Assembly (NCBI GenBank): GCA_051294375.1
Contig: JBJCIZ010000374.1
Location: 2,760-33,097 of the forward strand
Source of the DNA: Paraspadella gotoi
Lineage: Eukaryota; Animalia; Chaetognatha
DNA length: 30,338 nucleotides
Direction: 5' to 3'
Below, in pieces: positions 2,621-29,531 of the stretch; the first letter of the stretch is position 1; every line of letters begins with the position of its first letter. The notes under the pieces are model-generated. The model did no database searches. It was not told the DNA's origin and worked only from the letters and a program-made list of their open reading frames with translations. Both the position numbers and the translations under genes were made by a program.

Positions 2621-3010
2621 TGTAACGGATTGAGAGAGAGAGGGAGTTCCACAAGGGGGGACGGGGATAAAAGGAGGAGGGCGGGAAGCCATCCGTGAGG
2701 CGATTCTCCGAGAGTCGCCTTTTCCGCGAATCGCCTTTTTCCGCGAACTGTGAAGTTCGGAAAATAGAGAGAGGGAGAGAGACAGGGAAATAGAAGGAGG
2801 AGAAGATATATAAATTATAAGTCAAGGAGGAAAAGTAGAGAGAGACGTGAGAAATAAACTAGTAAAAAATTTTTAATGTTTTCACCTACTTGTAATAAAA
2901 AAAATAGAATCAAATAAACTCAAAACTACCTTCTTCTTTTTAAAACTTTCACGCTAAAGCCAAACGGTTCACGCCGAGCTAGCAAGTTGTTTGTAGCGTT
3001 AGATGCTACA
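2621..3010 (+). repeat. 5' LTR of the Gypsy element
   Basis: TGTAAC...GCTACA termini, TATA-like TATATAAA at ~2807, several AATAAA, and the CA end 4 nt before the PBS. The 5' boundary is inferred because there is no second copy. Confidence 0.7.
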
Positions 3011-3014
3011 AAAT

Positions 3015-3031
3015 TGGCGACCTTGCCAGGA
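3015..3031 (+). promoter_or_regulatory. Primer-binding site, tRNA-Arg type
   Basis: TGGCGACCTTGCCAGGA is complementary to a tRNA 3' end UCCUGGCAAGGUCG-CCA, close to metazoan tRNA-Arg(ACG). tRNA-Arg priming is known for 412/mdg1-group elements. Confidence 0.75.
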
Positions 3032-3033
3032 TA

Positions 3034-3537
3034 GTGGCGAACGCAACTCGCACTCTGGCTCCTGAGGAGACCAGCCTTCTCTACGCTTCCGTCATCAATT
3101 CCATCCTCGTTCTTTTGGAGATTTTTCTGGCGGGTCTGCTAATTCGATATGGCAGAAGGGTCGCCAGAGCCCCCAGTCCCTGGGGAGTCGCCTTTGTTGA
3201 GGCACCTGACATTGGAACCACACCAGTCCCCGCTGCCGGGAATCCATCAACTCCTATCAACCCAACCACGCCCACAGGAGCGGATAGTGAGAGAGCGGAG
3301 CCCATCATCCCAAGCTTCTCCACTCCCCGACGTCGTTCCCCACCACCCGAGCATTGCCTCACCATCCGAAGATCAAGGGGAACTTGTCCGCAGCCTTACC
3401 AGGCTTTCACTGTTAGTCGGAGACTTGGTTACGCGTCAGGAGAGCTTCAGCCAACAAATGGGGGTGGTGATGGAAGAACTCAACAACAACAATCGATCGG
3501 AGGTGAGCGAGGAGGTAGTGGTGGAGGAGCTGGTTGA
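3034..3537 (+). CDS. Single-pass transmembrane ORF upstream of and overlapping gag (GTG start)
   Basis: 14-aa N-terminus with NAT sequon, hydrophobic LLYASVINSILVLLEIFLAGLLI, basic RYGRRVAR, then a Pro/Thr-rich tail. Confidence 0.55.
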   Translation: MANATRTLAPEETSLLYASVINSILVLLEIFLAGLLIRYGRRVARAPSPWGVAFVEAPDIGTTPVPAAGNPSTPINPTTPTGADSERAEPIIPSFSTPRRRSPPPEHCLTIRRSRGTCPQPYQAFTVSRRLGYASGELQPTNGGGDGRTQQQQSIGGERGGSGGGAG

Positions 3538-3940
3538 TGAAGTGGACATGCCTGCGCCGGCGAGCAATCCGGCTGGGGCCGTCGCAGAGAGTGAGGAAAG
3601 AGCAGCTGGAGGAGCGCCGGTAGCCAAGGTAGCATCGGGGCAGCCGGTGGCTGCTGTGGAGGTTCCGGTCACCGCGGGAGGGAGCAGCGCAACCCTTCGT
3701 CTCACTGCGCCGGTGAAACCTGACTTTCCTCGTTATGCTGTTGGAGATTCCATTCGCTCCTTCTCGGCAGCGTTTGAGGGTAAAACGGGAAAACACCAAC
3801 CATTCAAACCACTTTGTGGGATGGAAAAGAAAAGTGGATTCGTCAAAAAGAAGATGGGCAAGAAGGGAGGGAACTTCAAAGGAAAGGAGAACATCCCTCC
3901 AAGGATGACAAATAATCACCAATCTCCGCCATCTGTTTAG
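3149..3940 (+). pseudogene. gag: Gag, internally deleted
   Basis: Lies between PBS and protease. A helical segment and the capsid-start-like DFPRYAVGDSIRSFSAAFE are followed abruptly (~3780) by a basic C-terminal part, so most of the capsid is missing. Confidence 0.65.
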
Positions 3941-4047
3941 GCAGAGAGGACTTGGGCGGGTCGACGGAAGATCTGCCCACTGGAGGTGGCGAGGAGAACG
4001 CGACTTCCGGATGTAGGGATCAACGTGGCGAGAGACTGTAGGAGGAG

Positions 4048-6498
4048 GTGACTGGCATTCGTTCGTCAACGGGATCGGTCGTGGAGGAGCCCATTACCAG
4101 ACATCAACCGGGTCACGATGTCAATCGATTGGCGCCCTCGACGCTGGAAGAAACTGTCCAAGGAATCTCTTTCACCTCGTGCCCAGACGAAGCCCAAACC
4201 GACTCCGAGGGATCTCGAATGTCTTCTCCAACTGTTTGTACAAAGGATTCCGGTGAGGGGAATGGGGAAACAATATATTTAGTAAAACCCGATATTCCCG
4301 GTCCATATCTGCCTATATCTTTTGGTAGTAAAAACTTGGACCCTGTGCATGTTATGTTGGATACGGGGAGTAATGTCAATATCGTTTCTATAAATATATT
4401 AGAAAAATCAGGGTTTCTGGTAAAACTATCACCAAGCCATTTAAATTTGGTAGGGATAGGGGGAGGTGGTTTAAATCTCCTTGGGGAGACCTCTTGTTTC
4501 ATAAACAATTATTCACAAAAAATTAGATTTCATGTTGTAAAGGAATTCGGTTTATGCATATTGGGTCTAACGGGTATGAAACGTTTTAAAATGCAAATTA
4601 ATCTTAATGTGGGTTTGGTCGTGTGCAATAATATGGCTATAAAATATAAAACAAATAATATCCAAATGGCTGAAACGGCAAGGATTCACGCTGTGACGAC
4701 GCGATCTGAGTGTAATCTCAAGTTAGAAGGGAAAGAGATGATAACTTACCTAAAGCTCACCGAAGGAGTCCAGGGTGATATTTGGAAGATTGACTGCGGA
4801 TTCGCCTGTAGGCGATATGGAATCATTATTTCCCGAGCAGTAATCAAAAGACAGGAATCAGGGATGGTACCTGTGGTCATAAAAAATTGGTATACACAAC
4901 CAATAAAATTATATCGAAACTGCACTATGGGAGTAGCTTCCCATAGTGAGATCATAATGGACCCGAGTGATGAAAAACCTTAGATCGATCTTAAGCCAGA
5001 TCCTGAGGATGGTGGGAATTGAAGTTAGCCCAGATGACCATCCTGTGGATAAGATCGACCCGAGCCATTTGAAAGGTAAACAAAAGGAGCATTGAGGCTC
5101 TGCTCAAGAGAAAATATAAAGCGGTATCAAGAGGAGAATGGGATTTAGGAAAACACATTTGTAGAGCATCACATTGAAATAGATAGACCAAACCAGGTCA
5201 TGAGGCTATTGTCGACCCTCCTAGACGTTACCCTTTAGAAAAACAAAAAGCCATCCGAGAGCATATTGAAAAACTTAGAACAATATAATTGAGGCATGTA
5301 AGAGTAGCCATTGTGCTTTTCCCATCTTGGCGAGCAAGCGGAAAAAGGATGGCACATTGGAAAAGAATGCTCGTATGGCTATCGATTATAGGAAATTAAA
5401 TAGCTATTCAATTCCCGTGTCCGCTTTAATACCAAATATGGCGGACGTTATCATGAGTGTTTCAGGGAATGGAAACCGTTGGTTTTCATCAATAGATCTT
5501 ACAAGTGCATTCTTTAATGTGGTTCTGGATGAGGCAAGTAGGCCATATACGACTTTCCAATCGCCAAATGGGGAGACATAGCAGTTTCTGAGATGTCCCT
5601 TTGGATTGATTAGTTCGCCAAGCACTTTTGCTTTGTTGGCAGCAAAGGTTCTGGCTGGAATTTCGTGGCAAAGTGCCTTGGCTTACCTTGACGTTATCAT
5701 TATCTTTTCGTCATCTTTTGAAGACCACTTGGAGCATGTTGAAGAGGTCCTGTGCCGCCTGGAATTGGCGGGTCTAAAGGCTAAGCCCTCAAAAATGACC
5801 TTGTTCAAAAACTCAATCCATATATTGGGTCATGAGGTCAGCCCCGAAGGGGTCAGGGCCGATGAGACAAAATTAATTGCCGTTAAGCACTGGCCAGTAC
5901 CAAAAACTGTTAAGCAGGTACAATCTTTTGTGGCCTTTGCCAATTTCTATTGGAGGTTTGTGCCACGGTTTTTGGGCATTACAAAGCCTTTGTATAGGCT
6001 CTCAGAGAAAGATGTTCCATTTGAATGGAATGAAAATTATCAACAGGCTTTTGAGGAGTTGAAAAGGTTGTTGTGCGCAGACACTTGTCTGGCGCCGCCT
6101 GACTTTGAAAAAGAATTCCATTTGTCCATAGATTGGTCAAATGTGGCTGTAGGATATGTATTGAGTCAGAAGTGTGATCGCACGGGAAAAATAAGACCGA
6201 TACTCTATGGGTCACAAGCCCATAAGGGAGTTCAGACTGATCCTAAAAGGGAAAGGAGTATTGATTCCTCCTATTTGGGAGAATATAAGGCTCTCCTCAC
6301 GGCTCTATCAGGATGTAAGGCATACCTTCTAGCTAAAGGGAACTTCACTGTCCATACCGACTGCGGTAGCCTTCTATATTTACTCCATTCTTGGTATTTA
6401 TTCTGCGATGTCTGGGGAAGATTGCCAAATTCGGAAAAGATTGGAAAATTGTCTGTTCAGGAATCCGAAATGTTGCTGCAGATGCAATGTCGCGCATC
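4048..6498 (+). pseudogene. pol: Pol: protease, reverse transcriptase, RNase H (disrupted)
   Basis: PR: MLDTGS, ILG. RT: PPRRYP, RMAIDYRKLN, IDLTSAF, CPFGL, YLDV (YLDD mutated), LGH. RH: IDWSNVAVGYVL, TVHTDC, NVAADAMSR (after a frameshift). Stop at 5579-5581 and several frameshifts. Confidence 0.95.
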
Positions 6499-6780
6499 GT
6501 GGAGGCGTGGGTTCGAATCCCACCGCTGCCACCAAGTGGAGGATAGTATTTTTAGTAGAAAATAATTCGACGCCAAGGTGAAATTGAAGGAGAATTTATT
6601 TAGTGTAACATCGAAGGGAAAGAAATAATAATAATGAGCGCGAGAATAAAATAACAATGACTTTTATATGAACTACTTTGTTTATCAAAGTAGGAATGTA
6701 AACGAGAATGGAATTTTAGGCCGAGAGAAATATTATTTACATTTTTGTAATTTACTGAATTCTTTCTCCCAATCTTCACT
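6499..6780 (-). mobile_element. Inserted LTR-like unit (6535-6780, AGT..ACT ends) plus tRNA-Leu-complementary tail, 5-bp TSD GCATC
   Basis: GCATC at 6494-6498 and 6781-6785; removing the insert restores ADAMSRIRLDVPPTG. Termini AGTGGAG/CTTCACT. Minus-strand AATAAA at ~6595-6600. Confidence 0.85.
6501..6534 (+). pseudogene. 3' fragment of mature tRNA-Leu including CCA
   Basis: GGAGGCGTGGGTTCGAATCCCACCGCTGCCA+CCA matches the T arm and acceptor 3' strand of metazoan tRNA-Leu(AAG/TAG type). Confidence 0.9.
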
Positions 6781-8282
6781 GCATCAGGTTAGATGTTCCA
6801 CCCACAGGGACTTGGGAGGAGATCTGTAGCAACAAAAAGAAAATCAGTGAGAGAATCGCGCCGGTAATCACAAGGAGCGCTTGGGAAGCTGAGAAGGCTG
6901 ACCCTGCAGCCGTCCTGAACCCTGATCAAGTTCAGGAGCCAGCAAAATTGACAGATTGGCGCAATTGGCAGGAAACGGACGAAGACCTGCTGGTATTGAA
7001 AAAATGGCTAACGGAGGGAGCTCCGGGAAGAGCCCAAGCCCGATGGAATAGTCCGGCTTTGAGATCATATTATGCATCGTTACCACAGTTTAGTCTGCAT
7101 GACGGAGTCATTGTCAGAAAATGGACTGACGCCATGGACCCAGATAAAGAGCTCAATTTACCAGTGGTGCCAGAGGATCGTGTGGTTGAATTATTATTCA
7201 ATGCTCATGAACTCCAAGGGCATCCAGGGGTCACTAGGATGCGGGATGTAATCAAGGATAAGTACTATTGGTACTCACGCGATGTCACCATAAATGAATA
7301 TGTGATGACATGCAACATTTGTGCCAGGAAAGCAAACCTCAGGGCACCCTTAGTCCAGGACAAAGCTTCGTTTTTCAATGAACGAGTAGCTATAGATATT
7401 AAGGTAATTGTATTGAACTAAGTTCGGAGAAGTGGCGTCTTTGAATTCTAACTGACTGGACTAATTCTGCGCATTGAAGACCAAATGGAATCGGGTATAA
7501 AATGGCGCAGAAGAGACGATGGCGCCGGTCCAGACGCCCTGGAGATGCTGACGACAAAGTCTCAGTAGACGACGTCGGCTAAGGCCGAAATGACGACTGT
7601 CTACGAAGCCCAGGACTTGACAAATGTTGATGTAAGTCTGAAGAAGAGTTTAAGTTAGAAGTCCTGGGCAAGAATAACAAAACATTTAGTACAAACTCAG
7701 CAAATATATAAATTTAAAGTGTCTTTCTTACTTGTTTCTGAAGCCAATAATAAACAAAATAGAGATGCTTCTCTTCATAGAAAAGTCCACCAAACCAGCG
7801 ATCACACAAAAATAAGATTCCGAGATATCTGAATAAGAGAATTTCTATGCTCTGAAAAGAACTAAAAACCCAGTGACAACTTTGAGATCTGAAGATGCCA
7901 CGTGGCCAAATTCGATAAGAATCTTAATCGAAATCCATCGAAATCACGGGCACCAATCAGAATCAGCTGTACACTGCCTTCGGAATTCTGTACTTAGGTA
8001 TAAACAAAAGAAAGAGCCTAAAGATGTCGTGTCGATCGCTAGAATGGAAGCATTTTCGATGTCAGTAATAAAGAGCAAAAGAGCAACGGGGAAAAGGTAG
8101 AGAAGCTGGATTTCCTCGTAATATTAGAGATAGTTATTTCGTAACAGTAATGACAAAACCATCGAGACATGGTTTTGTGGCAATCTTATTGATAGTAGAT
8201 TATTTCACTAGATTTGTGTCACTGACAAATCTAAAATCACAGACCGCAGAGGAAGTGTGGACGGCCTACATGGACAACTGGT
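6781..8282 (+). pseudogene. pol: Integrase N-terminal part, copy 1 (split by solo LTR, truncated)
   Basis: HHCC motif AHELQGHPG..CNIC; ERVAIDIK | VMTKPSRHGFVAILLIVDYFTRF; ends at MDNW. Confidence 0.9.
7409..8146. mobile_element. Solo LTR (738 bp) of another family, TSD GTAAT
   Basis: TGTATTGAA...TTCGTAACA termini; GTAAT at 7404-7408 and 8147-8151; removal restores the integrase frame. Confidence 0.9.
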
Positions 8283-9032: not shown

Positions 9033-9737
9033 TCTTTGGCCAACTAGTATTTGAACTGGAAGAGAAAACTGGAGGGAAAGTAATCAAAACGAACTATCAA
9101 AGCTATGAAAAAACTATAGAAAAAACTAAAGAGCAACGACAATATCTGTACATCATAAGTACAATCATTAGTTAGAGAACTACTGAACGTTTTTTTGTTT
9201 ATAAGTTTCAGTTCATTTTAATTTATTCTATATTTAAAGTTAAATTCTTTGCCCAACAGAGTAAAATTGACAAAAAAAGTCATTCTAAGCATGTTATTGA
9301 TAAACAGGACATAAATTTTATAACATAAGAAATCGCTAAAAATGTTTCAGTCAATGGCGTATCTGAATTCTCGTAACATTTTGTAAATTCTAAGTTTCTT
9401 TGCACAGTTCGTCGAAAAAAGTCGAAAAAAGCATGTTCTTAACTATCGTGAAAAATTATTTTATATCATATGAAATCCAAGTTAATGCTTTATTTAATGG
9501 TGTAAATGAATTCAATTGATACTTTTGAGGAGAAATTAATTTAGAATTTTTTAAATATAAAATACTTTTTACTGAAAATGAATTGGATGATCGTCAAAAA
9601 AGGTTTTTTTAAGTAAAGATTAAATTAATTTTAGAAAATTAGGATATAATAAACGTCTAGTAGATGGCTATAACTTATAGCAAGACATATAGTATAAATA
9701 TATATAGTATAAATAGAAGAGAAAAATTTGAAGATGT

Positions 9738-9968
9738 GAAGAGACAGTAATTAATGTTATGTGTTAGTGACAGAACCGTTCAATATAAGCAGTCCCTGAG
9801 CTTCGGATCAGGCTGTAACACCAATGTTACAGCGGGTTAAGCGCCCCGTCCTCCTTAACTGCTAGGCGGCCACCGGGCTACAACCCCGGACCTTTGGGTT
9901 GGGCGGCGAATGACTTGCCTCCGGCACCAATGCCGCTGAATGAACGGTTGGTGGATTTTAGTCCACCA
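9738..9968 (-). mobile_element. tRNA-derived SINE family 1, copy A
   Basis: Inverted homolog of 10638-10863; A-box-like TGGTGCCGGAGG, B-box-like GGTTGTAGCCC. Confidence 0.7.
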
Positions 9969-10322
9969 TAAAGTTCATTATGAGAAATGGTAAGCACTTT
10001 TTTTTTTGGTGTCACTAGCGAATGGACACATGGAAATCACAACAAGAAAACGTAAATATACTTATTCCAAAAAAAGTGCAATTAATTTAATAGATAGTTC
10101 AAGATAATAGAAGCAAGCTCACTAAATTTGTTTTAAAATATTTATAAAATGTAATACAAAAAATAAAATATATAATGACGAAATATATAATATAACTTGC
10201 CTAACTATATTAACTATGCCCTAAAAAGCTAAAAAAATTACATGGATCACAAACAACGCAATATTCAGCGTTTACAACGAAAATGAATTTTTTTAAAAGT
10301 TGAACAATGGTAAAAGCGCGAC

Positions 10323-10935
10323 GGCGATCCGGAGTTGAATTCGCTCTGGAGGCTATGGAAAAACGAAGAGAAAGAAGAGGAAAAAATAAAGTTTGTTTCT
10401 TTACGGAAAAAAAAATTTAAGACCGTAACAACCAATGATATTAAAAACATTTTAAGCTTTACGAGCTAAGGATTTCTTTTTTAATTCTTTAAAAAATTTA
10501 ATTATAATATTTTTTTTATTACCTTTGATAGATATTTATAAAATAAGTTTTTATTTGTGATAACCACGATTATTTAATAATTGGATATGTTTTTGGTTCT
10601 TGTTTTTGATCCTTCATCAACCAGTTTAATAGTTTTATAGTGGACTAAAATCCACCATTCATCAGAGGCCATTGGTGCCGGAGGCAAGTCATTCGCCTCC
10701 AACTCAAAGGTCCGGGGTTCTAGCCGGTGGTCGTCTGGCATGTTAAGAGGCACGGGGCGCTTAACCCGCCCTGTAACATGGTGTTACAGCTTGATCGAAG
10801 CTCAGGGACTGCTTATATTGAACAGTTCTGTCACTAACATATATCAATAATTACTGTTTCTTCAGTTTTAATAAATATTTGGATACTAACTTTGAGAGAT
10901 AGAGAGAGAGCAATTTTAACCTTGATATCTCTCAC
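10323..10935 (-). repeat. Interspersed repeat with Penelope pLTR-like segment, interrupted by a SINE
   Basis: Inverted homolog of 12352-12755; degenerate hammerhead-like motif at 10579-10627. Confidence 0.65.
10638..10863 (+). mobile_element. tRNA-derived SINE family 1, copy B, TSD AGTTTTA
   Basis: AGTTTTA at 10631-10637 and 10864-10870; the empty site is visible in the paralog at ~12418-12433; A and B boxes present. Confidence 0.8.
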
Positions 10936-11214
10936 TCTTTCCGAATTATTAAATGACCCTTGTAATCATAAATAAAATTCTGTTACTTAAATAAATATTA
11001 TTATTATATTTTTTATAAATTTATTAATATTTAAATATTCTTTTTTGAATATTAAATTATTATATACTTAAGAAAAAGGGTCATTCAATTCAACTTCAAA
11101 ATAGGCCAAAATGGAGTACAAATTCAGAAAGCAGAGCTCCTGGCGATTCCGAAAATGTATTCACTTTAAACATTTGATATCGGTTTTAATTTATAATATA
11201 AAAAAAAGAAACCT

Positions 11215-11490
11215 ATCTGAAGAGTTGCAGGTCAACGAAAAGGCCATCCATCTGATATTTTTTATGAATTTTTTATTACTGAATTAGAAAAATATAATAG
11301 AGAGACATTTTTAAATTCAACTTGTATCCTGGAAAATGAAATGTTTTTAAACTTTAACCCTGAATTCTTTCTAACTGGATCGCGTTTATCAAAATGTCTC
11401 TCTATTACATTTTTACAAATGTTTTTAAGATTGCTAATCAAATTTTTAATTCAATATTATTGCAGTCGTTTAGGCTGCAACTCTTCAAAT
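11215..11490. repeat. Degenerate foldback/MITE-like inverted repeat
   Basis: TGAAGAGTTGCAG pairs with CTGCAACTCTTCA; nested AATAGAGAGACATTTT pairs with AAAATGTCTCTCTATT. Confidence 0.5.
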
Positions 11491-11877
11491 TCAGTGTAGA
11501 TTCATTGTAGCTCGAATTTCTTACCATCTATTTAACTGAAGATTTTGTTCATGACTGGAAAACCAACGAGTAACGAGATTAATTGTTTAATTCTCCCCTT
11601 CTAAACTAACCCATACCGTGTTTTAACTTCTTACCTAGAATTTTTTAACAAACAGATTGAAAACAAATCTTTAAAAAATATGCTTACCCATTTAACTTAA
11701 CAGTTTTGTTATTTACCCATTTAAAAAAAATGATTAAAAACAGAATGTTTACATATAAATAAAAACTTATTTTTTTATTACTGATGATTATAATGTATTT
11801 CTCGATATATTAGCTCTAATACATCAATGATTACGTATTGGTTATGCTGAATGACCTTTCCTCTTAACCAAAAAATT

Positions 11878-12352
11878 AATTTTAAATTTAACTCTAATTT
11901 ACTCTTAACTTACCCTTAACCCTAACTTACCCTTAACCCTAACTTACCCTTAACCCTACCTTACCCTTAACTTATTTTTACCTTAATTTATTTTTTTAAT
12001 TAACTTACACTTATTCTTAATTTATTCTTTACCATAATTTATTGTAACCTTAATTTTTACCCAAATATATATTGGTTGTACCAATTTTATATAACAAAAA
12101 TAAAAAATATTTAAAAAAATTATGATATCTGAATTCCTTTATTTTTCCCGAAACATTATCCTCTTCCATTCCATTTTCGTTCTTTTTTCATTAATTCTTT
12201 AAGAAAAACCTTGCTCTTCGTTTTCCCATAGGCCTCCAGAGGGCATTGATCTCCAGGAATGCCCTATTCGGCATCAATGTAAGTAAGTTAGGGTTAGAGT
12301 TAAGTTTGGGTTAGGGGTAAGTTAGGGGAAATTAGAGTTAAATTTAAAATTT
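11878..12352. repeat. Inverted arms with a telomere-like 17-bp minisatellite (AACTTACCCTTAACCCT)
   Basis: AATTTTAAATTTAACTCTAATTT vs AAATTAGAGTTAAATTTAAAATT; CCCTAA-type units on the left, TTAGGG-type units on the right. Confidence 0.65.
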
Positions 12353-12755
12353 GGAGAGAGAAAGATATCAAGGTTAAAATTGCCTCTCTCTCTATCTCTC
12401 AAAATTAGTATCCAAATATTTATTAAAACTATTAAAACTGGCTGATGAAGGTTCAAAAAACAATAACCAAAACATATCGAATTATTAAATGATCGTAGTT
12501 ATCACAAATAAAAATTATATTTGTAAATATCTATCAAAAGCAATATAAAAAAATTACAATTATTAATATTTAAAAAACATTTTTTAAAGAATTAAAAAGA
12601 AATCCTTAGCTCGTGAAACTTAAAAAAGTTTTTAATATCATTGTTGTTACGATCTTAAATTTTCTTTTCTGTAAAGAAACGAACTTTTATTTTTTCCTTA
12701 CTTTCTCTTCGTTTTCCCATAAGCTCCAGAGCGTATTCAACTCCGGGATCGCCAT
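12352..12755 (+). repeat. Interspersed repeat with Penelope pLTR-like segment, uninterrupted copy
   Basis: (CT)n tract followed by CTGATGAAGGTTC..AACCAAAACATATC at ~12436-12483. Confidence 0.65.
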
Positions 12756-14179: not shown

Positions 14180-15839
14180 AATAATAATGAGCGCGAGAAT
14201 AAATAACAATGACTTTTAATGAACTACTTTGTTTATCAAAGTAGGAATGTAAACGAGAATGGAATTTTAGGCCGAGAGAAATATTATTTACATTTTTGTA
14301 ATTTACTGAATTCTTTCTCCCAATCTTCACTGCATCAGGTTAGATGTTCCACCCACAGGGACTTGGGAGGAGATCTGTAGCAACAAAAAGAAAATCAGTG
14401 AGAGAATCGCGCCGGTAATCACAAGGAGCGCTTGGGAAGCTGAGAAGGCTGACCCTGCAGCCGTCCTGAACCCTGATCAAGTTCAGGAGCCAGCAAAATT
14501 GACAGATTGGCGCAATTGGCAGGAAACGGACGAAGACCTGCTGGTATTGAAAAAATGGCTAACGGAGGGAGCTCCGGGAAGAGCCCAAGCCCGATTGGAA
14601 TAGTCCGGCTTTGAGATCATATTATGCATCGTTACCACAGTTTAGTCTGCATGACGGAGTCATTGTCAGAAAATGGACTGACGCCATGGACCCAGATAAA
14701 GAGCTCAATTTACCAGTGGTGCCAGAGGATCGTGTGGTTGAATTATTATTCAATGCTCATGAACTCCAAGGGCATCCAGGGGTCACTAGGATGCGGGATG
14801 TAATCAAGGATAAGTACTATTGGTACTCACGCGATGTCACCATAAATGAATATGTGATGACATGCAACATTTGTGCCAGGAAAGCAAACCTCAGGGCACC
14901 CTTAGTCCAGGACAAAGCTTCGTTTTTCAATGAACGAGTAGCTATAGATATTAAGGTAATTGTATTGAACTAAGTTCGGAGAAGTGGCGTCTTTGAATTC
15001 TAACTGACTGGACTAATTCTGCGCATTGAAGACCAAATGGAATCGGTATAAAATGGCGCAGAAGAGACGATGGCGCCGGTCCAGACGCCCTGGAGATGCT
15101 GACGACAAAGTCTCAGTAGTCGACGTCGGCTAAGGCCGAAATGACGACTGTCTACGAAGCCCAGGACTTGACAAATGTTGATGTAAGTCTGAAGAAGAGT
15201 CTTTAAGTTAGAAGTCCTGGGCAAGGAATAACAAAACATTTAGTACAAACTCAGCAAATATATATAAATTTAAAGTGTCTTTCTTACTTGTTTCTGAAGC
15301 CAATAATAAACAAAATAGAGATGCTTCTCTTCATAGAAAAGTCCACCAAACCAGCGATCACACAAAAATAAGATTCCGAGATATCTGAATAGAGAATTTC
15401 TATGCTCTGAAAAGAACTAAAAACCCAGTGACAACTTTGAGATCTGAAGATGCCACGTGGCCAGAATTCGATAAGAATCTTAATCGAAATCCATCGAAAT
15501 CACGGGCACCAATCAGAATCAGCTGTACACTGCCTTCGGAATTCTGTACTTAGGTATAAACAAAAGAAAGAGCCTAAAGATGTCGTGTCGATCGCTAGAA
15601 TGGGAAGCATTTTCGATGTCAGTAATAAAGAGCAAAAGAGCAACGGGGAAAAGGTAGAGAAGCTGGATTTCCTCGTAATATTAGAGATAGTTATTTCGTA
15701 ACAGTAATGACAAAACCATCGAGACATGGTTTTGTGGCAATCTTATTGATAGTAGATTATTTCACTAGATTTGTGTCACTGACAAATCTAAAATCACAGA
15801 CCGCAGAGGAAGTGTGGACGGCCTACATGGACAACTGGT
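14180..15839 (+). repeat. Near-identical direct copy of 6627-8282
   Basis: Starts inside the AGT..ACT LTR, includes the solo LTR; about ten differences, mostly 1-2-nt indels. Confidence 0.95.
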
Positions 15840-16799: not shown

Positions 16800-19628
16800 C
16801 AAAGAGATGAGTAACGCTCCGGCGGAACTCCGGGGCGGGCGGTGGCGGCGACGGGTGGAGGTCTACCAGGACTTCGATGGTTCCACCCCCTCCTAAGGAG
16901 TCGTCCTCGCGGGAATCAACGGCCGCTGGGATCATTGAGATCTCGTGCGACTAAAAGCCGCTAAGATGACGAAAGAGAAGTGGCGTCGAGTGGAGCGTCT
17001 CAATGGCCGCTCGCGCTCGGCGCCGACAGCAGCGGCGGAGAAGGACGACGAGGAGGATGAGGAGTGCTGTTGAGGCCGCCCCCGCGGTGAAACAAATCAT
17101 TTTCTGGAAAAAAGATAAAATCAGTTTTAATTAAATAAAATAATAAAATAAAATAATAATAGACAAATAGAAATATTCAAAGAACTGTTCCAGGCTCTTA
17201 CCGAAAGAGATTCGGAGTGTCGGCGGGGATGGCGGTGTACCATGACGTGCGGCCACGGTGATCGGGAGAGCGGAGGGGGCGTGACGCCCGACGCTCTCCG
17301 GCGTTTCCGATGTCGATGTGTTTAGGGGGAGCGATGAATGGGTCATCATCGTCGTTGCCTCCGTCCGCTTCGTCTCCTTTGTGGTTTCCTTCGTCGTCCT
17401 CGTCGTTACGGTCGTCGTCGTCGAGACGGTCGTCGTCGTCGTCGTCGAGACGGTCGTCGTCGGGGTAGTGAGGGGGTCGACTAAGATGATCTGCAAGTCG
17501 TAACCCCATCCCCTCGCTGAACGGAAAAATAAAAAGAAAAAAAAAATAAAGGATCGGCGGAATAAAATAAGCTATGGTAATAGATTAACAAATGAGTAAG
17601 GACAAATTTTACCTTTCCTGTTTGTTGTCAGGGAGGAGACAAATTCTCCGGGGCCCCGTCAAGGAGTTGTAAAACTATGTCGTCGAGATCCCCAGGAGAA
17701 GAGGTTGATTCCCCTTCTAGGAGAAAAGGGAGATTCGCCACCAGGGTGTCAATTTCCCGAAAGGTGGGAGATGGTGGCAAGGTCAGGTGGAGGGGAGCGA
17801 TTATGGAAGCCTCCGCGGAAGCAGGTTGAGAGAAATCCTCCACCATCTCTTTGATCCAGGGGTCGGCCGCAGACGAACATGGAGTGGGTTCGGTGTCGTC
17901 GACCCAATGGACGAGGGGGGTGGCCAAAGGAAGAGACAGTCAGAAAAAATGGCCTCCGAAGAGGGGAGACTTTCTGGCGGATGAGGGGCCGGGAAAATGA
18001 TCTCCGGAACGGAAGTTTCGGGGTCTGGAGTGGACGAAGAGGACGGTTCCTGAAGGATGATATAGATGCGAGAGTTGGAAGCGTCCAGAGTCGTGGAGGG
18101 AGGCGGAACCGCCGCTTCCGAATGGAAAGTTAGAGATGGCTCTGGATGCGCAGGAGAGGAAGTGATTTCACTCTCCTGCCAAACAATCTCTGGGGCGGCG
18201 CGACGGCGTTTCGGGGGATTTTGGAAAAACGTCTCTTTAGGGGACGGAGCTCGGCGGCGGCGACAACCTCGCCCACCAGAGCCCGTGGAGACAGGTGAGG
18301 AAGTCCGAGTTGAGGTCCGAGTCGGGCGAGTCGGACCTCAGATCCCTTTCCAATTGGGGCTGATAAACGAAGGGCCGAGGACAGACCAGGGGATGGGTGG
18401 CGGGCATTTCCATTCCCGGTCCGAAGAAAATCCCTGGGAGGAAATGGGGATTAACAGTCTTGGACACCCAGCTCCTGTTTTGAACCAAGGTTCGAGCCGG
18501 GGCGCATGAGGCCCCTCGATGTAGAAGAAACTGGCGCCGGTTGGCCACTGGGGGCGTGGTGGGGCGCGAGATGGGGTCCGGGATGGCATGAGGCGGTGGA
18601 TGGTACCTATGAGTAAAAGGAAAGAAATGTGAAAAAAACTATACTAGATAAAAAAGTAAGAGAATTAGAGAATCAGCAAGAAAACATAAATGAGAATTCC
18701 AAAATAACCTACTGGTAAGGAGGATCCTCCGAGTGTAAAATAGTGCTGGGTTCCACTATCTCGAAGGTGCCACGTAGGGGGAAGGTGGAACGTTGTGCGG
18801 CAAAAGGGAGCGGAGAGTCATGACGGTACCCCGAGATCCAAGGGGAACCGCCGAATATCCACTGTTCCCATCGGACTTGGCGCTCAGCCTCCGACGGGAA
18901 CTGACGACGAGGATGAAGGAGCCGGACAACTAAGGCTTCGCACCAGGAGTGTTGGGAGCGCCGGGGAAGCACTCCCACGTAGTTCCCAGGGACTCTGATG
19001 CAACCCCGCAGATCCTCCGTGGCCCCGACAGGGGGATCCCGGTCAACTCGCCACCCCATGTGGGGAAAACGGGCAGCTGCGTCGACGGCCGGGTAGCTAA
19101 GCAAGCAAAAGGGAAATCGAGATAAAGGATTGGATTCAAAGCAAAATATAAATTTAATTTAAATTCAGGACAAAATATGTTTGAACTGCTGACAATTGAA
19201 CTGCTGACAACTGAACTGCTGACAACAGTCTATTATTTTGTTTTAAACAAAATATTAAGAGATGCTTACCAGTTCCAAAACGGTGTCGTGCTGAGGTGTA
19301 CAGAACCCTGGGAGGATCTCCGTACTCCAAGGTGTGCATTTCCTCTGACAAATAGAGGCGGATCGGTGCACTGGCAGGTCTGTCTCTCTCGGGCGGCGAA
19401 GATGCCGCGCCGCCTGACGCAGCTCGAGAGTCAGAACCTCCGTGTGAAGCCGAAGAGTGAAGGGAGCCAAGAGAGTGATGGGAGTGGGCCGGACGAAGCT
19501 TGAAAAGATGAGAGATAGGACCCAGCGGAGTTGGTTGGGGTCTTGAATCTCGACGGGCGTTGGTGAGAGACCGTTGGGAAGAAGTGTCGAGGGCCCGGAT
19601 AGCCAAGCCACCAACGAAAATGTATTCC
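16800..19628 (-). pseudogene. Antisense multi-exon cassette (5 GC-rich exons, 4 GT-AG introns)
   Basis: Minus-strand introns 19269-19097 (GTAAGC..TTAG), 18712-18607 (GTAGGT..ATAG), 17612-17517 (GTAAAA..TCAG), 17201-17104 (GTAAGA..CCAG), each T-rich with a pyrimidine tract; further acceptor TTTTAG at 19630-19629. Confidence 0.7.
19182..19226. repeat. 3 x 15-bp tandem repeat TGAACTGCTGACAAY
   Basis: Seen directly, inside intron 19097-19269. Confidence 0.9.
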
Positions 19629-21974: not shown

Positions 21975-22266
21975 TTGACCAAATTATGCTAATGACCAAT
22001 TATGCCAGTTGACCAATTCTGCAGTTAATCAGTTTTGCAAGTTGACCAAATTATGCCTGTTGTACCAATTAGGCTAGTTGATAAAATTATGCCGTAAACC
22101 AAATTATGCCGGTTGACCAAATTATCTTAATTGATCAAATTATGTCAGTTGACCAAAATTATGTCAGTTGACCAAATTATGTCAGTAGACCAAATTATGT
22201 CAGTTAACCAAATTAATGTCAGTTGACCAAATTATGCAAGTTGATTAAATTATGCAAGTTGACCAA
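21975..22266 (+). repeat. 18-bp minisatellite within the HINE
   Basis: GTTGACCAAATTATG(T/C)CA units. Confidence 0.9.
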
Positions 22267-23073
22267 GATAGCTTATTACCACTTAATTATCGATTGACCT
22301 GGAATTTTGTATGTGAGTAGAAAAGTGTGTGATTGAACAGGAAACAAGTTCGATGGAATCTTTGAGTGGAAAAAAACAAAAACCTGTTTCACTAATTGAT
22401 TATGCTTCTTTTTCCTTTTATATTAAATGTATATGCAGGATGTATTAATAAGTCAAATAATTAATCAGTTAATTAATCATTAGTCAATTAATTAATCAAT
22501 AATTAATTAATCAGTCAATCAATCCGCCATCCGTCCCACCTTAGCAAAAAGCTCCAATAACTCGTGATTGGCTGGTTGGATTGAAATGAAATTTTGTTGT
22601 GGGTAGGAAAGTGTGTGATAAAGCTGGATAAAAGTTTCGACGAATCGTGTGAGTGGAAATGAGTTTAAGTGGAAAAACATAAGTGCATTTACTAAAATCT
22701 TTTTACTTATTTTAACCATAAGTACTCTAATTAATCATAATTGGATGGATAGATTGAGTTCAAATTTTTTGTGTGGGTAGAAAAATGTGTATCGTGCTTG
22801 ATATAAAGTTTCGGTGAAACGTACGAGTGGAAAGGAGTTTAAATGAAAAAATATGAGTCACATTTACTTGATCTTTTTTACTTATTTTACCATAATAGAT
22901 TGAGACAAATTTTGTGAGCGGGTAGGAAGTGTGTGAAAAAGCTAGATATAAAGTTTTGACGGAATTGTCAGTGGAAATGAGTTTAAATGGAAAAAACTAA
23001 GTCACATTTACTTGAGCAGAAAAATGATACAAGTTAAAAAATCCTAAAAGCATAAGGATCGTCGCAATTGCAA

Positions 23074-26399: not shown

Positions 26400-28930
26400 A
26401 ATCTTCGTTTGCGGATCGCCTTCGTTCAAGCGTTTCGTCGAAGTTTCTCTAATCCTCGGCGAATACTTCGGGTTCACCGAGAAGAAGTACCACCAGCGTC
26501 GGTCTCTGGGTGCCGAACGAATCGACGTTTCCATCATCGAAGGAACTAGCTATTCCTTCGACGGACGTAAGGGTCTAGCGGCGCCTTTGTGCATGACTTG
26601 CGACTAGGACCTCGACTAGCGACGAGATACGACGATCGTCTACGGGTATTACTTTCGTGGATAAATTCCGTCGCTCCTTCTGATACATTGCAGTGAGATT
26701 GAAGTTCGGTCTCGATTCGTTTTATTTCTTCAAACTTTGCGCCGCGGCTGCAATACGTCGTCGTGAAACTTTCTCGATTTCTACGCCGCTACGATCATCA
26801 GCGGCGACGAATAGGATTGTGAAGAAATAAGCGCACCAGTGATCATCAGCGTCGTCGAAGCTCGAGTGTCGAAATCCTTCTTTGGAATTCCCCTTTCAGC
26901 GTTTCTTGTTGATGTTACTGTTTCCTTTATAAGACGATATCGGGCTCGCTTAAGTTCAGTAAAAGAGAAATATCGATCACTTCGCGACGTTCGACAAACA
27001 ATTTTCCAGACCCCAAATTACCTTTCCGAATATCAGACTAAGCCTTCTTCAAAGCGGACATGGCTCATATCCCTGCGAGCCATACCCTACAGGAATGCCA
27101 CGTCTTCCTTCACGGCCTCAATGTCGAACAAGCGGTCGAGGCGCATGCGGTTTCGTTTGATCGCGCTAAGACCACTCCGACGCAGGAGAATATCGCGGAA
27201 GCCAATGCGGATAGGCACATTGTGAAAGCGACTTACGAACGCATTTGTTCTGCGATATCCGGAGGCAGTTGGAATGATAAGGCGATGGAAGTTTTGTCGG
27301 ACTTCCTCAATCGCCTCCACAACATCCTTGGGCAGCGCCGCTTACTTGATTCGCGGGCTAATTCAATGTCCACGCGTGCCTCATCGGTAGAAAGCATAGC
27401 ATCGACTGGACGCTCCGTTTCCGCCACAGCACGGATAACGCCGATGCCGGAGCTACCGGAGATTTCCGAGAAAAGGGAACCAGTTCTTCGGCTGTAAACG
27501 ATCCCGACGATGGCTTCGTGGCGTCCATCCCGGCCGTTCTCGCCTCCTCCGCCATCTCCAGAAGATGAAGTAGATGGAACACTGTCCGTCTTGTTCCCGT
27601 CTGACGTCAAGCCGGCATCAACAGAGGAACAGCGCACTGAGGGAAATAACAACGTCCCAACATTATCTTTCGCCAGAACCACTGGAGGATCCTTTGGGTC
27701 CGGAGAGTGAGACTGTCGCTGTAACCGGAACGACGAGAGCTCATAGCTTACGCTCGGACATCAACGCCGCCAACGATATGGACGATGAAGCATCTCACGT
27801 CGGCGTCAAAGGAAGTGCACCAGATTTTTCCGCCATCTTTTCGACTCTTCATGGAGTTTCGGATCAACTGAGAGAGATGCGTGATGAGACAGAGGACGAT
27901 ATACATAACGTCACCGCTGCGAATCGCGCATTACAGACGAGGACGGAAACAAACGAGAGGTCGGCAGAACGAGTTTTTGGCGAAGCCGAGAAACCTTTTT
28001 CGTCGCCTGACGCCCGCAACATCGACTCGAACGGCAGACTGGGTCGAGGCTCAGACAGCGTCCCCCCGTTTGGAGCCCTCTCTCCATCAGCTTGTAGCCG
28101 GCCTTCAACTACCAACGACTCCACCGCCAGCTTACGACATAACGATTCATCATCGTGAATCGTCGGCTCGTCTCAACGAAGTCGGCACGCGTGCGTCAGC
28201 AGCAGCAGCAGCAGATCAGCACGCGGGTTCATCGGAAGCGGATCCTCGATGAGGTGAGGCGGCGGGCGTGGGAGCGGGAGCCGATGACGCTCCGCCCATC
28301 GCCAATCCTCGATTGCATCCACCAGCAACTTTGGAGTCAATACGCGACGCTTTAAGGGAACTTTGTGAACAAGGACAGCATCGTGAGGCGGCGGGAGAAC
28401 GTGAGGCGGCGGGAGAAGGAGGAGCGGTCACTTCTCCGCCTCCCCCGCCAGTCGTTTCACACGGCGCTACTACCGCTGCGGCGATGAACGCCGAAGCGCC
28501 GGCTTTTACCCTCGAAGCGTGACGCCTCATTCGGCGGCGTCACACGCTTCACACGTTTCCGGCATCCGCGGCGCCATCTTCGATCCGGCGCCGTCTGAAA
28601 CGCCTTCGACCGCTCAGCTGCGATGGCGACGGGCTTTTTTGGAATTCAAGCCCAGACTCTCGCCTTCCAAATGCTTCAGCAGCAGCGCCCAAAGAACAAA
28701 GTCGACGAAAATCTCAGCATTGGACTTTGAGCGTCAACTTCGAGACTTTCAAGTGAGCGTCTGTGCGTTGGAGGGCGCCACGATCCCATGAAGTTGAAGG
28801 AGCTACCCACTGGTTCGACGGTCTTTCCAAGCGATCCGTCTGCACGCGTCTCCTTTCTTCGAGCGCTTTAACCGTCCCCATCGCGAAATAGTAACACGAT
28901 CGTTTATTTAGGGTATTGGCTCGCTCCCCT
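26400..28930 (+). mobile_element. Decayed retroelement 5' region: GC-rich leader plus frameshifted gag/ORF1-like sequence from ATG 27060
   Basis: Chain of overlapping + ORFs (27060-28900): helical N-terminus, S/P/A-rich linker, coiled-coil-like DQLREMRDETEDDI, ending ..AIRLHASPFF..EIVTRSFIR. No LTR, PBS or RT seen. Confidence 0.45.
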
Positions 28931-29531
28931 AGTTGACAAATTACGCCCCAGTTGACAAATTTGCCAGTTGAGCAAATTATGCCACTTGACGCAAATTATG
29001 CTGTTGAGCAAATTATGTTGGTTGACCAAAATTAATGTCAATTGACCAAAATGTATGTCAGTTGCCATATATGCCAGTTGGCCATATTATGCGGTTAGTC
29101 CATTTTGCCAGGTTGACCAAAATTGTAGCCAATTGACAAATACTGCCAGTTGACGCAAATTATCCAGTTGACAAAAATTATGCCAGTTGACCAAATAATG
29201 CAACTTGATTAAATTATGCAGTTGACCAAATTATGCAACTTGATTAAATTATGCAATGTTGACCAAATTATGCAAATTGACCAAATATGCAAATTTCCAA
29301 ATTATGCAAAATTTCCAAATTATGCAAGTTAGTATTGCGCAGCTACTGGCCAGAGTTATTTATTGATTTATGATTTTTTCATAGATTTATTAAGAAGTCT
29401 GTTATTTGTTATGTTACAATTTATGATTTTTTCGAATTGAAAATCAGAAAATACTACCGTGATTAATCATGTCGATTAGCTTATTATTGTTTAATTATCG
29501 TAGCAGATCTGACATTGTTTAGTCAAACTTG
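28930..29531 (+). mobile_element. 3' part of another HINE copy
   Basis: 18-bp minisatellite at 28930-29330; 3' end GCAGATCTGACATTGTTTAGTCAAACTTG matches 23926-23953. Confidence 0.75.

Follow-up and report, generated by a model that had tools for sequence, protein, structure and literature searches.

In Drosophila, Ty3/gypsy elements of the MDG1 group carry sORF2, which lies upstream of gag, and a screen accepting proteins of 60-210 residues with an ectodomain of 10-50 residues yielded 105 sORF2/FAST-like candidates in insects (10.1101/2025.03.14.642691; PMC13486581). According to the preprint, this screen demanded an AUG together with a myristoylation motif, and non-canonical starts were outside the authors' search; the sORF2 of Stalker1/2 has no myristoylation motif, indicating that the motif is not universal in the family, and the authors were unable to reproduce fusion in heterologous assays (10.1101/2025.03.14.642691). 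A Culex family of the Mdg1 lineage is listed with an Arg PBS (PMC3286476). As for viral proteins, the aquareovirus FAST protein NS22 (p22) is started at a CUG ahead of a second ORF on one RNA (PMC3135578), three membrane-proximal basic residues are sufficient for p14 to leave the Golgi for the cell surface (PMC3952855), and the glyco-Gag of MLV starts at a near-cognate codon of the leader, ahead of the gag AUG and in frame with Gag (PMC7760323). The Oikopleura Tor elements were dropped from the comparison, since their env is a cysteine-rich glycoprotein encoded after pol (PMC4402516). So far, envelope-free passage of a retrotransposon from soma to germline has been shown only for the insect MDG1 group.

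Here, we analysed a stretch of 30,338 nt (hereafter the window), in which an AUG-less ORF with one predicted transmembrane helix (the membrane ORF) overlaps the start of a likely gag ORF. The membrane ORF resembles sORF2 in being a small sense-strand ORF that precedes gag at the 5' end of its gypsy element, with one predicted helix, a predicted N-out/C-in topology, a Tyr directly past the helix and a basic patch; its 167 residues also fit the 60-210 range of the screen. On the other hand, it has no AUG, no MGxxxS/T and no accompanying sORF1, is longer than the 63-107 residues given for sORF2, has a longer tail and overlaps the gag start by 389 nt, and the RT of its element was not placed in MDG1. 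Its ectodomain of 14-21 residues, which bears a sequon, falls within the 10-50 range of the screen and below the roughly 30 residues typical of sORF2/FAST proteins. The proposal of a FAST/sORF2-like fusogen, made in a preliminary description of this DNA, is thus a likeness of layout, with no MGxxxS/T from any candidate start, a short ectodomain and nothing that assigns the element to the mdg1/412 group. Because of the missing AUG and MGxxxS/T, the short sequon-bearing ectodomain, the longer tail and the gag overlap, we did not file the membrane ORF as a member of the sORF2/FAST group, although by analogy it may function like one.

The other systems were compared in the same manner. NS22 shares with the membrane ORF a non-AUG start (proposed for the membrane ORF) in strong context ahead of a second ORF, a helix, a basic patch and an Arg/Pro-rich tail, whereas it differs in its myristoylation motif, in the position of the helix (residues 35-57) and in its demonstrated fusion activity (PMC3135578); no sequence similarity between the two was found in protein and PDB sequence searches. 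Relative to the three basic residues of p14, the membrane ORF has four membrane-proximal Arg. The likeness to glyco-Gag lies in the near-cognate leader start and in a membrane form proposed to arise by leaky scanning, but the membrane ORF is in a different frame from gag in all copy types compared and has a stop of its own. Influenza B NB, paramyxovirus SH and coronavirus E are small hydrophobic accessory proteins of RNA viruses, which similarly combine a very short N-terminal ectodomain, a sequon or a polar helix residue and an overlap with a main ORF; in contrast, the membrane ORF has no sequence or structure match to them, and such proteins were not found described for retrotransposons in the literature searched.

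The element and its two 5' frames

The features of the 5' region and of pol are as follows, with the basis of each assignment.

2621-3010, + strand: 5' LTR (TG...CA), from the sequence; loose contig ends fall at 2621 in three of four runs
2807-2814, + strand: TATA-like box in the 5' LTR
2853, 2894 and 2913, + strand: AATAAA in the 5' LTR
3013-3057, + strand: candidate near-cognate starts in the membrane frame (ATT 3013, ATA 3031, GTG 3034, CTG 3055), all having an A at -3 plus a G at +4
3015-3032, + strand: PBS-like 18-mer beginning with TGG, from the sequence, 4 nt past the LTR end
3034-3537, + strand: membrane ORF, 167 codons from the GTG, in the -1 frame relative to the AUG-3149 ORF
3040-3048, + strand: candidate N-A-T sequon, from the sequence; residues 3-5, 12 residues ahead of the helix
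3076-3144, + strand: predicted single transmembrane helix, residues 15-37 (23 aa), by Kyte-Doolittle and AlphaFold2
3145-3168, + strand: juxtamembrane Tyr39 and arginine patch RYGRRVAR, predicted to be cytosolic by charge bias
3149-3940, + strand: likely gag ORF from the first strong-context AUG, named by position and presumed likeness to capsid starts
4042-7421, + strand: pol in pieces (protease, RT, RNase H and the start of integrase), by Pfam, translations and tblastn with the relative P0002

The LTR, the PBS, the order protease-RT-RNase H-integrase and the Ty3-like RT show that the element is a Ty3/gypsy LTR retrotransposon. The closest solved structure matching pol was the Ty3 RT (E 2e-29), and the nearest RT relatives share 45-47% identity. 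In an RT tree from a quick search (84 rows, without a named 412/mdg1 row), the window joined P0001 and P0002 with an SH-aLRT of 99, and the eight proteins of the sister clade were all pol-only products. The PBS may be of the tRNA-Arg type; neither a tRNA gene nor a second LTR was found in the 30,338-nt window. The pol pieces are interrupted by stops and frame breaks, as seen in the translations and by tblastn. The contigs of other copies depart from the window at 3781 (loose ends in three runs) and 3786 (two runs), indicating that the middle of gag is missing from the window copy. This copy is dead, with part of gag lost and stops in pol; the membrane ORF is nevertheless open.

The preliminary description had reported a GTG with G at +4 just past the PBS, followed by an N-A-T sequon, a 23-aa hydrophobic stretch, RYGRRVAR and a Pro-rich tail. 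All of these were found again, and the GTG at 3034 proved to have an A at -3 as well. The membrane frame is open from 2983 to its stop at 3535-3537 and contains no ATG. Its ectodomain, which includes N-A-T, has 14 residues when counted from the GTG and 21 from the start at 3013. The best 19-residue Kyte-Doolittle mean of the stretch 3076-3144 was 2.36, a value reached by 0.2% of 5000 shuffles (p 0.002) and, among 1487 overlapping segments taken from the + strand of the window, by 12; the hydrophobic stretch thus exceeds chance. AlphaFold2, given the single sequence of the membrane ORF, returned one confident helix at residues 10-44 (pLDDT 86-97 over 11-40), with everything outside it disordered (pTM 0.27). 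The helix is flanked by four Arg on its C-terminal side versus one Arg and two Glu ahead of it, and from this charge bias an N-out/C-in topology is predicted. Residues 45-104 contain 14 Pro. The hydrophobic moment of the ectodomain is moderate (0.64-0.77) and present only when the PBS-encoded residues are counted, while the high moment of the tail (1.0) sits on the basic patch itself; the WGVAFV after the patch is hydrophobic and its moment low. The myristoylation motif MGxxxS/T does not result from any of the four candidate starts; the start at 3013 yields Gly2, yet has Arg at position 6.

The leader was examined for possible starts. Its 2840-3148 part contains six near-cognate codons in strong context (purine at -3, G at +4), and four of these share the membrane frame and fall inside a 45-nt span. 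By resampling, such clustering had a P of 0.0006; when the element was scanned in 558 overlapping segments, 14 contained as many near-cognates, and two of the four candidates fall in LTR-end/PBS sequence that is fixed for other reasons. No strong-context AUG was found between the TATA-like box and 3149, the two leader AUGs ahead of 3149 (2876 and 3003) both being weak. A start at an upstream AUG was rejected, since AUG 3003 lies outside the membrane frame and the listed contigs show no length difference at that place. This arrangement of codons suggests that the membrane ORF is likely started at one of the near-cognates.

The membrane and gag frames overlap over 389 nt, and the gag frame is closed at 3140, ahead of its AUG. 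Since Pfam gave no gag match for the AUG-3149 ORF, its name leans on its position and on a resemblance to capsid starts that we presume; a disordered N-terminus and a long helix at residues 74-118 are predicted for it. The gag-frame piece 3347-3781 gave no match in the PDB and two weak matches among 1.84 billion representatives, both in long repeat proteins and judged spurious. Similarly, the membrane ORF had no match in Pfam or among PDB sequences, and a search of 5.8 billion proteins, covering lengths of 91-293, gave 334 candidates, none of them at E <=10. RT relatives for which DNA was available (80 metagenome and 6 viral loci, with 23-42% RT identity) were also searched, and neither the membrane nor the gag frame was matched in any of these 86; scans of viral and prokaryote contigs with the P0001 or sister-clade alignments found nothing. 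In the largely open-access literature searched, no direct precedent was found for a non-AUG, gag-overlapping transmembrane ORF in gypsy elements.

Copies of the element and constraint on the two frames

Contigs of public runs were aligned to the window in two comparisons, and the stretch was found in nine runs from three studies of one organism; one run, X8, yielded no aligned contig. Listed were 24 of the 72 contig pieces, eight of which span 3345-3350 with at least 31 letters on each side; indels were listed at a 25% threshold, and pieces of matching depth were assigned to one contig type. The eight spanning contigs carry 0, 15, 21-24 or 32 differences, that is, four sequence types. One indel near 3345-3350 had been suggested earlier as the means by which the membrane ORF would become the true N-terminus of Gag, but at this threshold none of the eight listed spanning contigs had a gap or length difference there. 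Seven of them were gap-free, and the eighth had five gap letters, all within 3251-3281, whose net effect of three letters retains both frames. Likewise, no gap was found in 3003-3032 among the five listed pieces covering it, so that AUG 3003 is out of frame in the covering copies too. Given the lack of gaps at both places, the AUG-less two-frame layout, which is common to the copy types compared, is a family property rather than a copy error or decay. Moreover, the hydrophobic frame was not lost while the ATG-3149 frame was kept: both were retained in diverged copies, which supports a separate membrane protein.

The helix region could be compared in one diverged contig (depth 42, 3003-3142) with seven differences, six of them within 3037-3148; the contigs of a more diverged subfamily stop at 3042 in three runs and hence lie outside this comparison. 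Four of the six differences are silent in the membrane frame and the other two are conservative (S14G, V20I). With a mutation-spectrum-weighted null, the BLOSUM loss was low (p 0.012), while the silent count taken alone was not significant (p 0.10). A contig of low depth (2.5) carries a 1-letter gap within 3092-3139. In the contig covering ATG 3149, six differences were found, all assigned to listed upstream sites, leaving the AUG unchanged.

In the overlap 3152-3345, the diverged type shows 16 differences, of which six are silent in the membrane frame only, nine in the gag frame only, and one changes both, as compared with expectations of 4.9, 5.2 and 5.8, respectively (p 0.006). In this interval, assuming constraint on both frames gave a better model than membrane-only (p 0.006) or gag-only (p 0.04) constraint; these values weakened to 0.02 and 0.14 when five sites of another contig type were added, and extending the two-frame test to 3380 gave p 0.07-0.26. 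Since the sites are few and incomplete (40 of 56 difference rows were listed; excluded were a second allele at 3296 and four sites in or next to the gaps of the contig) and the signal is weaker with more sites, we regard the two-frame selection as suggestive, not firm. Silent changes are in excess in the gag frame (9/16, p 0.04); its other changes include the harsh L>R, L>P and Q>L. Judged by BLOSUM loss, the membrane frame is better kept (p 0.024) than the gag frame (0.10). The differences cluster at 3350-3356.

The openness of the membrane frame was assessed by resampling synonymous gag codons and counting the stops that arose in the membrane frame. Over 128 gag codons, no stop was present versus 3.8-7.9 expected (P <0.0001 to 0.014, depending on the codon table), and the 62 codons past 3345 (3347-3532) were stop-free by themselves with a P of 0.001-0.046. 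Two downstream controls had stops roughly as expected (three, with ~4 expected, and one, with 1.6-3.3 expected). In other copies, the openness to 3537 was seen in part.

Proposed role and alternative readings

Overall, these results indicate that the feature is real and most likely represents a hidden accessory membrane gene; as an ORF translated separately from gag, the membrane ORF is probably genuine. Given such a separate ORF, a role in cell-to-cell transfer has slightly better than even chances. The specific reading that we tentatively prefer, although it falls somewhat short of an even chance, is that of a separate, overprinted, small single-pass membrane protein that helps capsids to reach or cross the plasma membrane. 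Of the ribosomes scanning the genomic RNA, some would initiate at a strong near-cognate codon at or just past the PBS, while the remaining ones would scan on to the strong AUG 3149 and make Gag, giving little membrane protein and mostly Gag. The helix, as predicted from the charge bias, would insert N-out/C-in without a signal peptide. By analogy with FAST and sORF2 proteins, the arginine patch may act in transport to the cell surface, while the tail, rich in Pro and Thr and facing the cytosol, could contact capsids or actin. A stronger version, in which a gag-overprinted fusogen of the sORF2/FAST type, non-myristoylated and started at a non-AUG codon, lets the element pass from cell to cell with no envelope, would be a new architecture beyond the reach of the published screen and is unlikely; such a fusogen may act together with another membrane protein, encoded antisense at the 3' end of the element.

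A non-fusogenic role is a close rival, considering the missing myristoylation motif, the short ectodomain with a sequon and the polar residues of the helix. The membrane ORF would then be a real, separate membrane protein but not a transfer factor, namely a small glycosylated accessory protein or a viroporin-like oligomer that alters membranes, trafficking or host defence, and we consider this somewhat less probable than a transfer role, though clearly worth weighing. Every point that favours a real ORF applies to it equally, no candidate start yields MGxxxS/T, and the sequon lies on a very short ectodomain; a p14 variant with an added ectodomain sequon was glycosylated and fusion-dead, which its authors attribute to the substitution itself (PMC3952855). 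Furthermore, a helical wheel places Asn22 and Glu29 on one helix face as a polar stripe, and the codon of Asn22 differs silently in the diverged copy, so that the residue is retained. However, the position after the PBS, the juxtamembrane Tyr, the arginine patch and the Pro-rich tail fit the sORF2/FAST layout, the Stalker1/2 sORF2 likewise has no myristoylation motif (10.1101/2025.03.14.642691), and no channel was matched by sequence or structure in Pfam or among PDB sequences.

The possibility that the ORF belongs to a membrane-anchored Gag was weighed as well. Here, a programmed shift or a splice from the membrane into the gag frame would give an N-out/C-in, glyco-Gag-like precursor beside Gag. 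This reading draws on the length of the frame overlap, on the membrane tail being a predicted disordered linker to ~3345 with a gag-frame helix predicted to start just beyond, on the harsh gag-frame changes and better-kept membrane frame of 3152-3345, on the concentration of differences at 3350-3356 and on one GTGAG donor-like site at 3287. It is nevertheless improbable: the listed contigs have no copy-specific indel, 3149-3537 contains neither a canonical slippery heptamer nor a familiar +1 motif in frame, and the pyrimidine-rich acceptors give frame-incompatible introns, the compatible one near 3416 being weaker when judged by eye. In addition, the membrane frame stays open for the 62 codons past 3345, and AUG 3149 has a strong context, shows no change in the diverged contig covering it and opens a frame with excess silent changes. 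Besides, the MLV glyco-Gag is in frame with Gag (PMC7760323), whereas the membrane ORF is out of frame.

A frame left open by chance where leader and gag start are GC-rich, whose U-rich stretch is kept as an RNA packaging or dimer signal and encodes no protein, could account for the missing AUG, for the missing homologues (Pfam, PDB, 5.8 billion proteins) and for signals drawn from few informative sites by several tests on a single locus, but it is equally improbable, since the hydrophobicity, the silent or conservative helix changes, the avoidance of double hits, the 128 stop-free codons and the clustered strong near-cognates all favour one frame, the RNA of 3030-3160 folds no better than shuffles (z 0.25), and Rfam gave two weak sub-threshold matches, both outside 3034-3490.

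If the membrane ORF is the separate membrane protein that we prefer, the presence of a conserved non-AUG ORF of this kind, overprinted on a gag start, in a distant gypsy lineage suggests that ORF finders miss such accessory proteins and that they are commoner than recognized. It is a short and directly testable candidate. Even if non-fusogenic, it would still be an accessory membrane protein encoded by a retrotransposon, of which the literature searched gave no example of this type.

Other features of the window

The flank ahead of the LTR (2541-2568) is itself repeated, and its eight listed differences share one triplet phase, resembling a coding sequence under selection; another mobile element was thus the likely target of the insertion. 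Two copies of a 1.66-kb part of pol, at 6627-8282 and 14180-15839, share 99.2% identity, and the second copy continues into the remainder of integrase. This doubling represents a duplication, a split insertion or an assembly artefact.

Past the end of integrase (~16560), a GC-rich region on the - strand (16950-19500) is broken by AT-rich, intron-like gaps, with GGTAA donors near 17201, 17612 and 19269. It contains a Thr-rich, mucin-like frame (~17210-17500) and, in its last exon, a hydrophobic helix at 17097-17041 (KD 2.44), after which come RRCC and further arginines; as assembled, these two frames do not join under an obvious intron, and Pfam gave no match for six frames of the region. This region could encode a second membrane protein of the element, as a candidate in a window that holds no 3' LTR.

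Elsewhere, an 18-bp minisatellite forms three arrays with shared flanking repeats (290-520, 21975-22270 and 28930-29330), and nested long inverted repeats of 240-335 nt with 85-88% identity, foldback- or MITE-like, occupy 9737-10864 and 10323-12753. A second GC-rich, broken coding region, on the + strand at 26800-28900 and with no clear Pfam match, is probably the first ORF of another retroelement.
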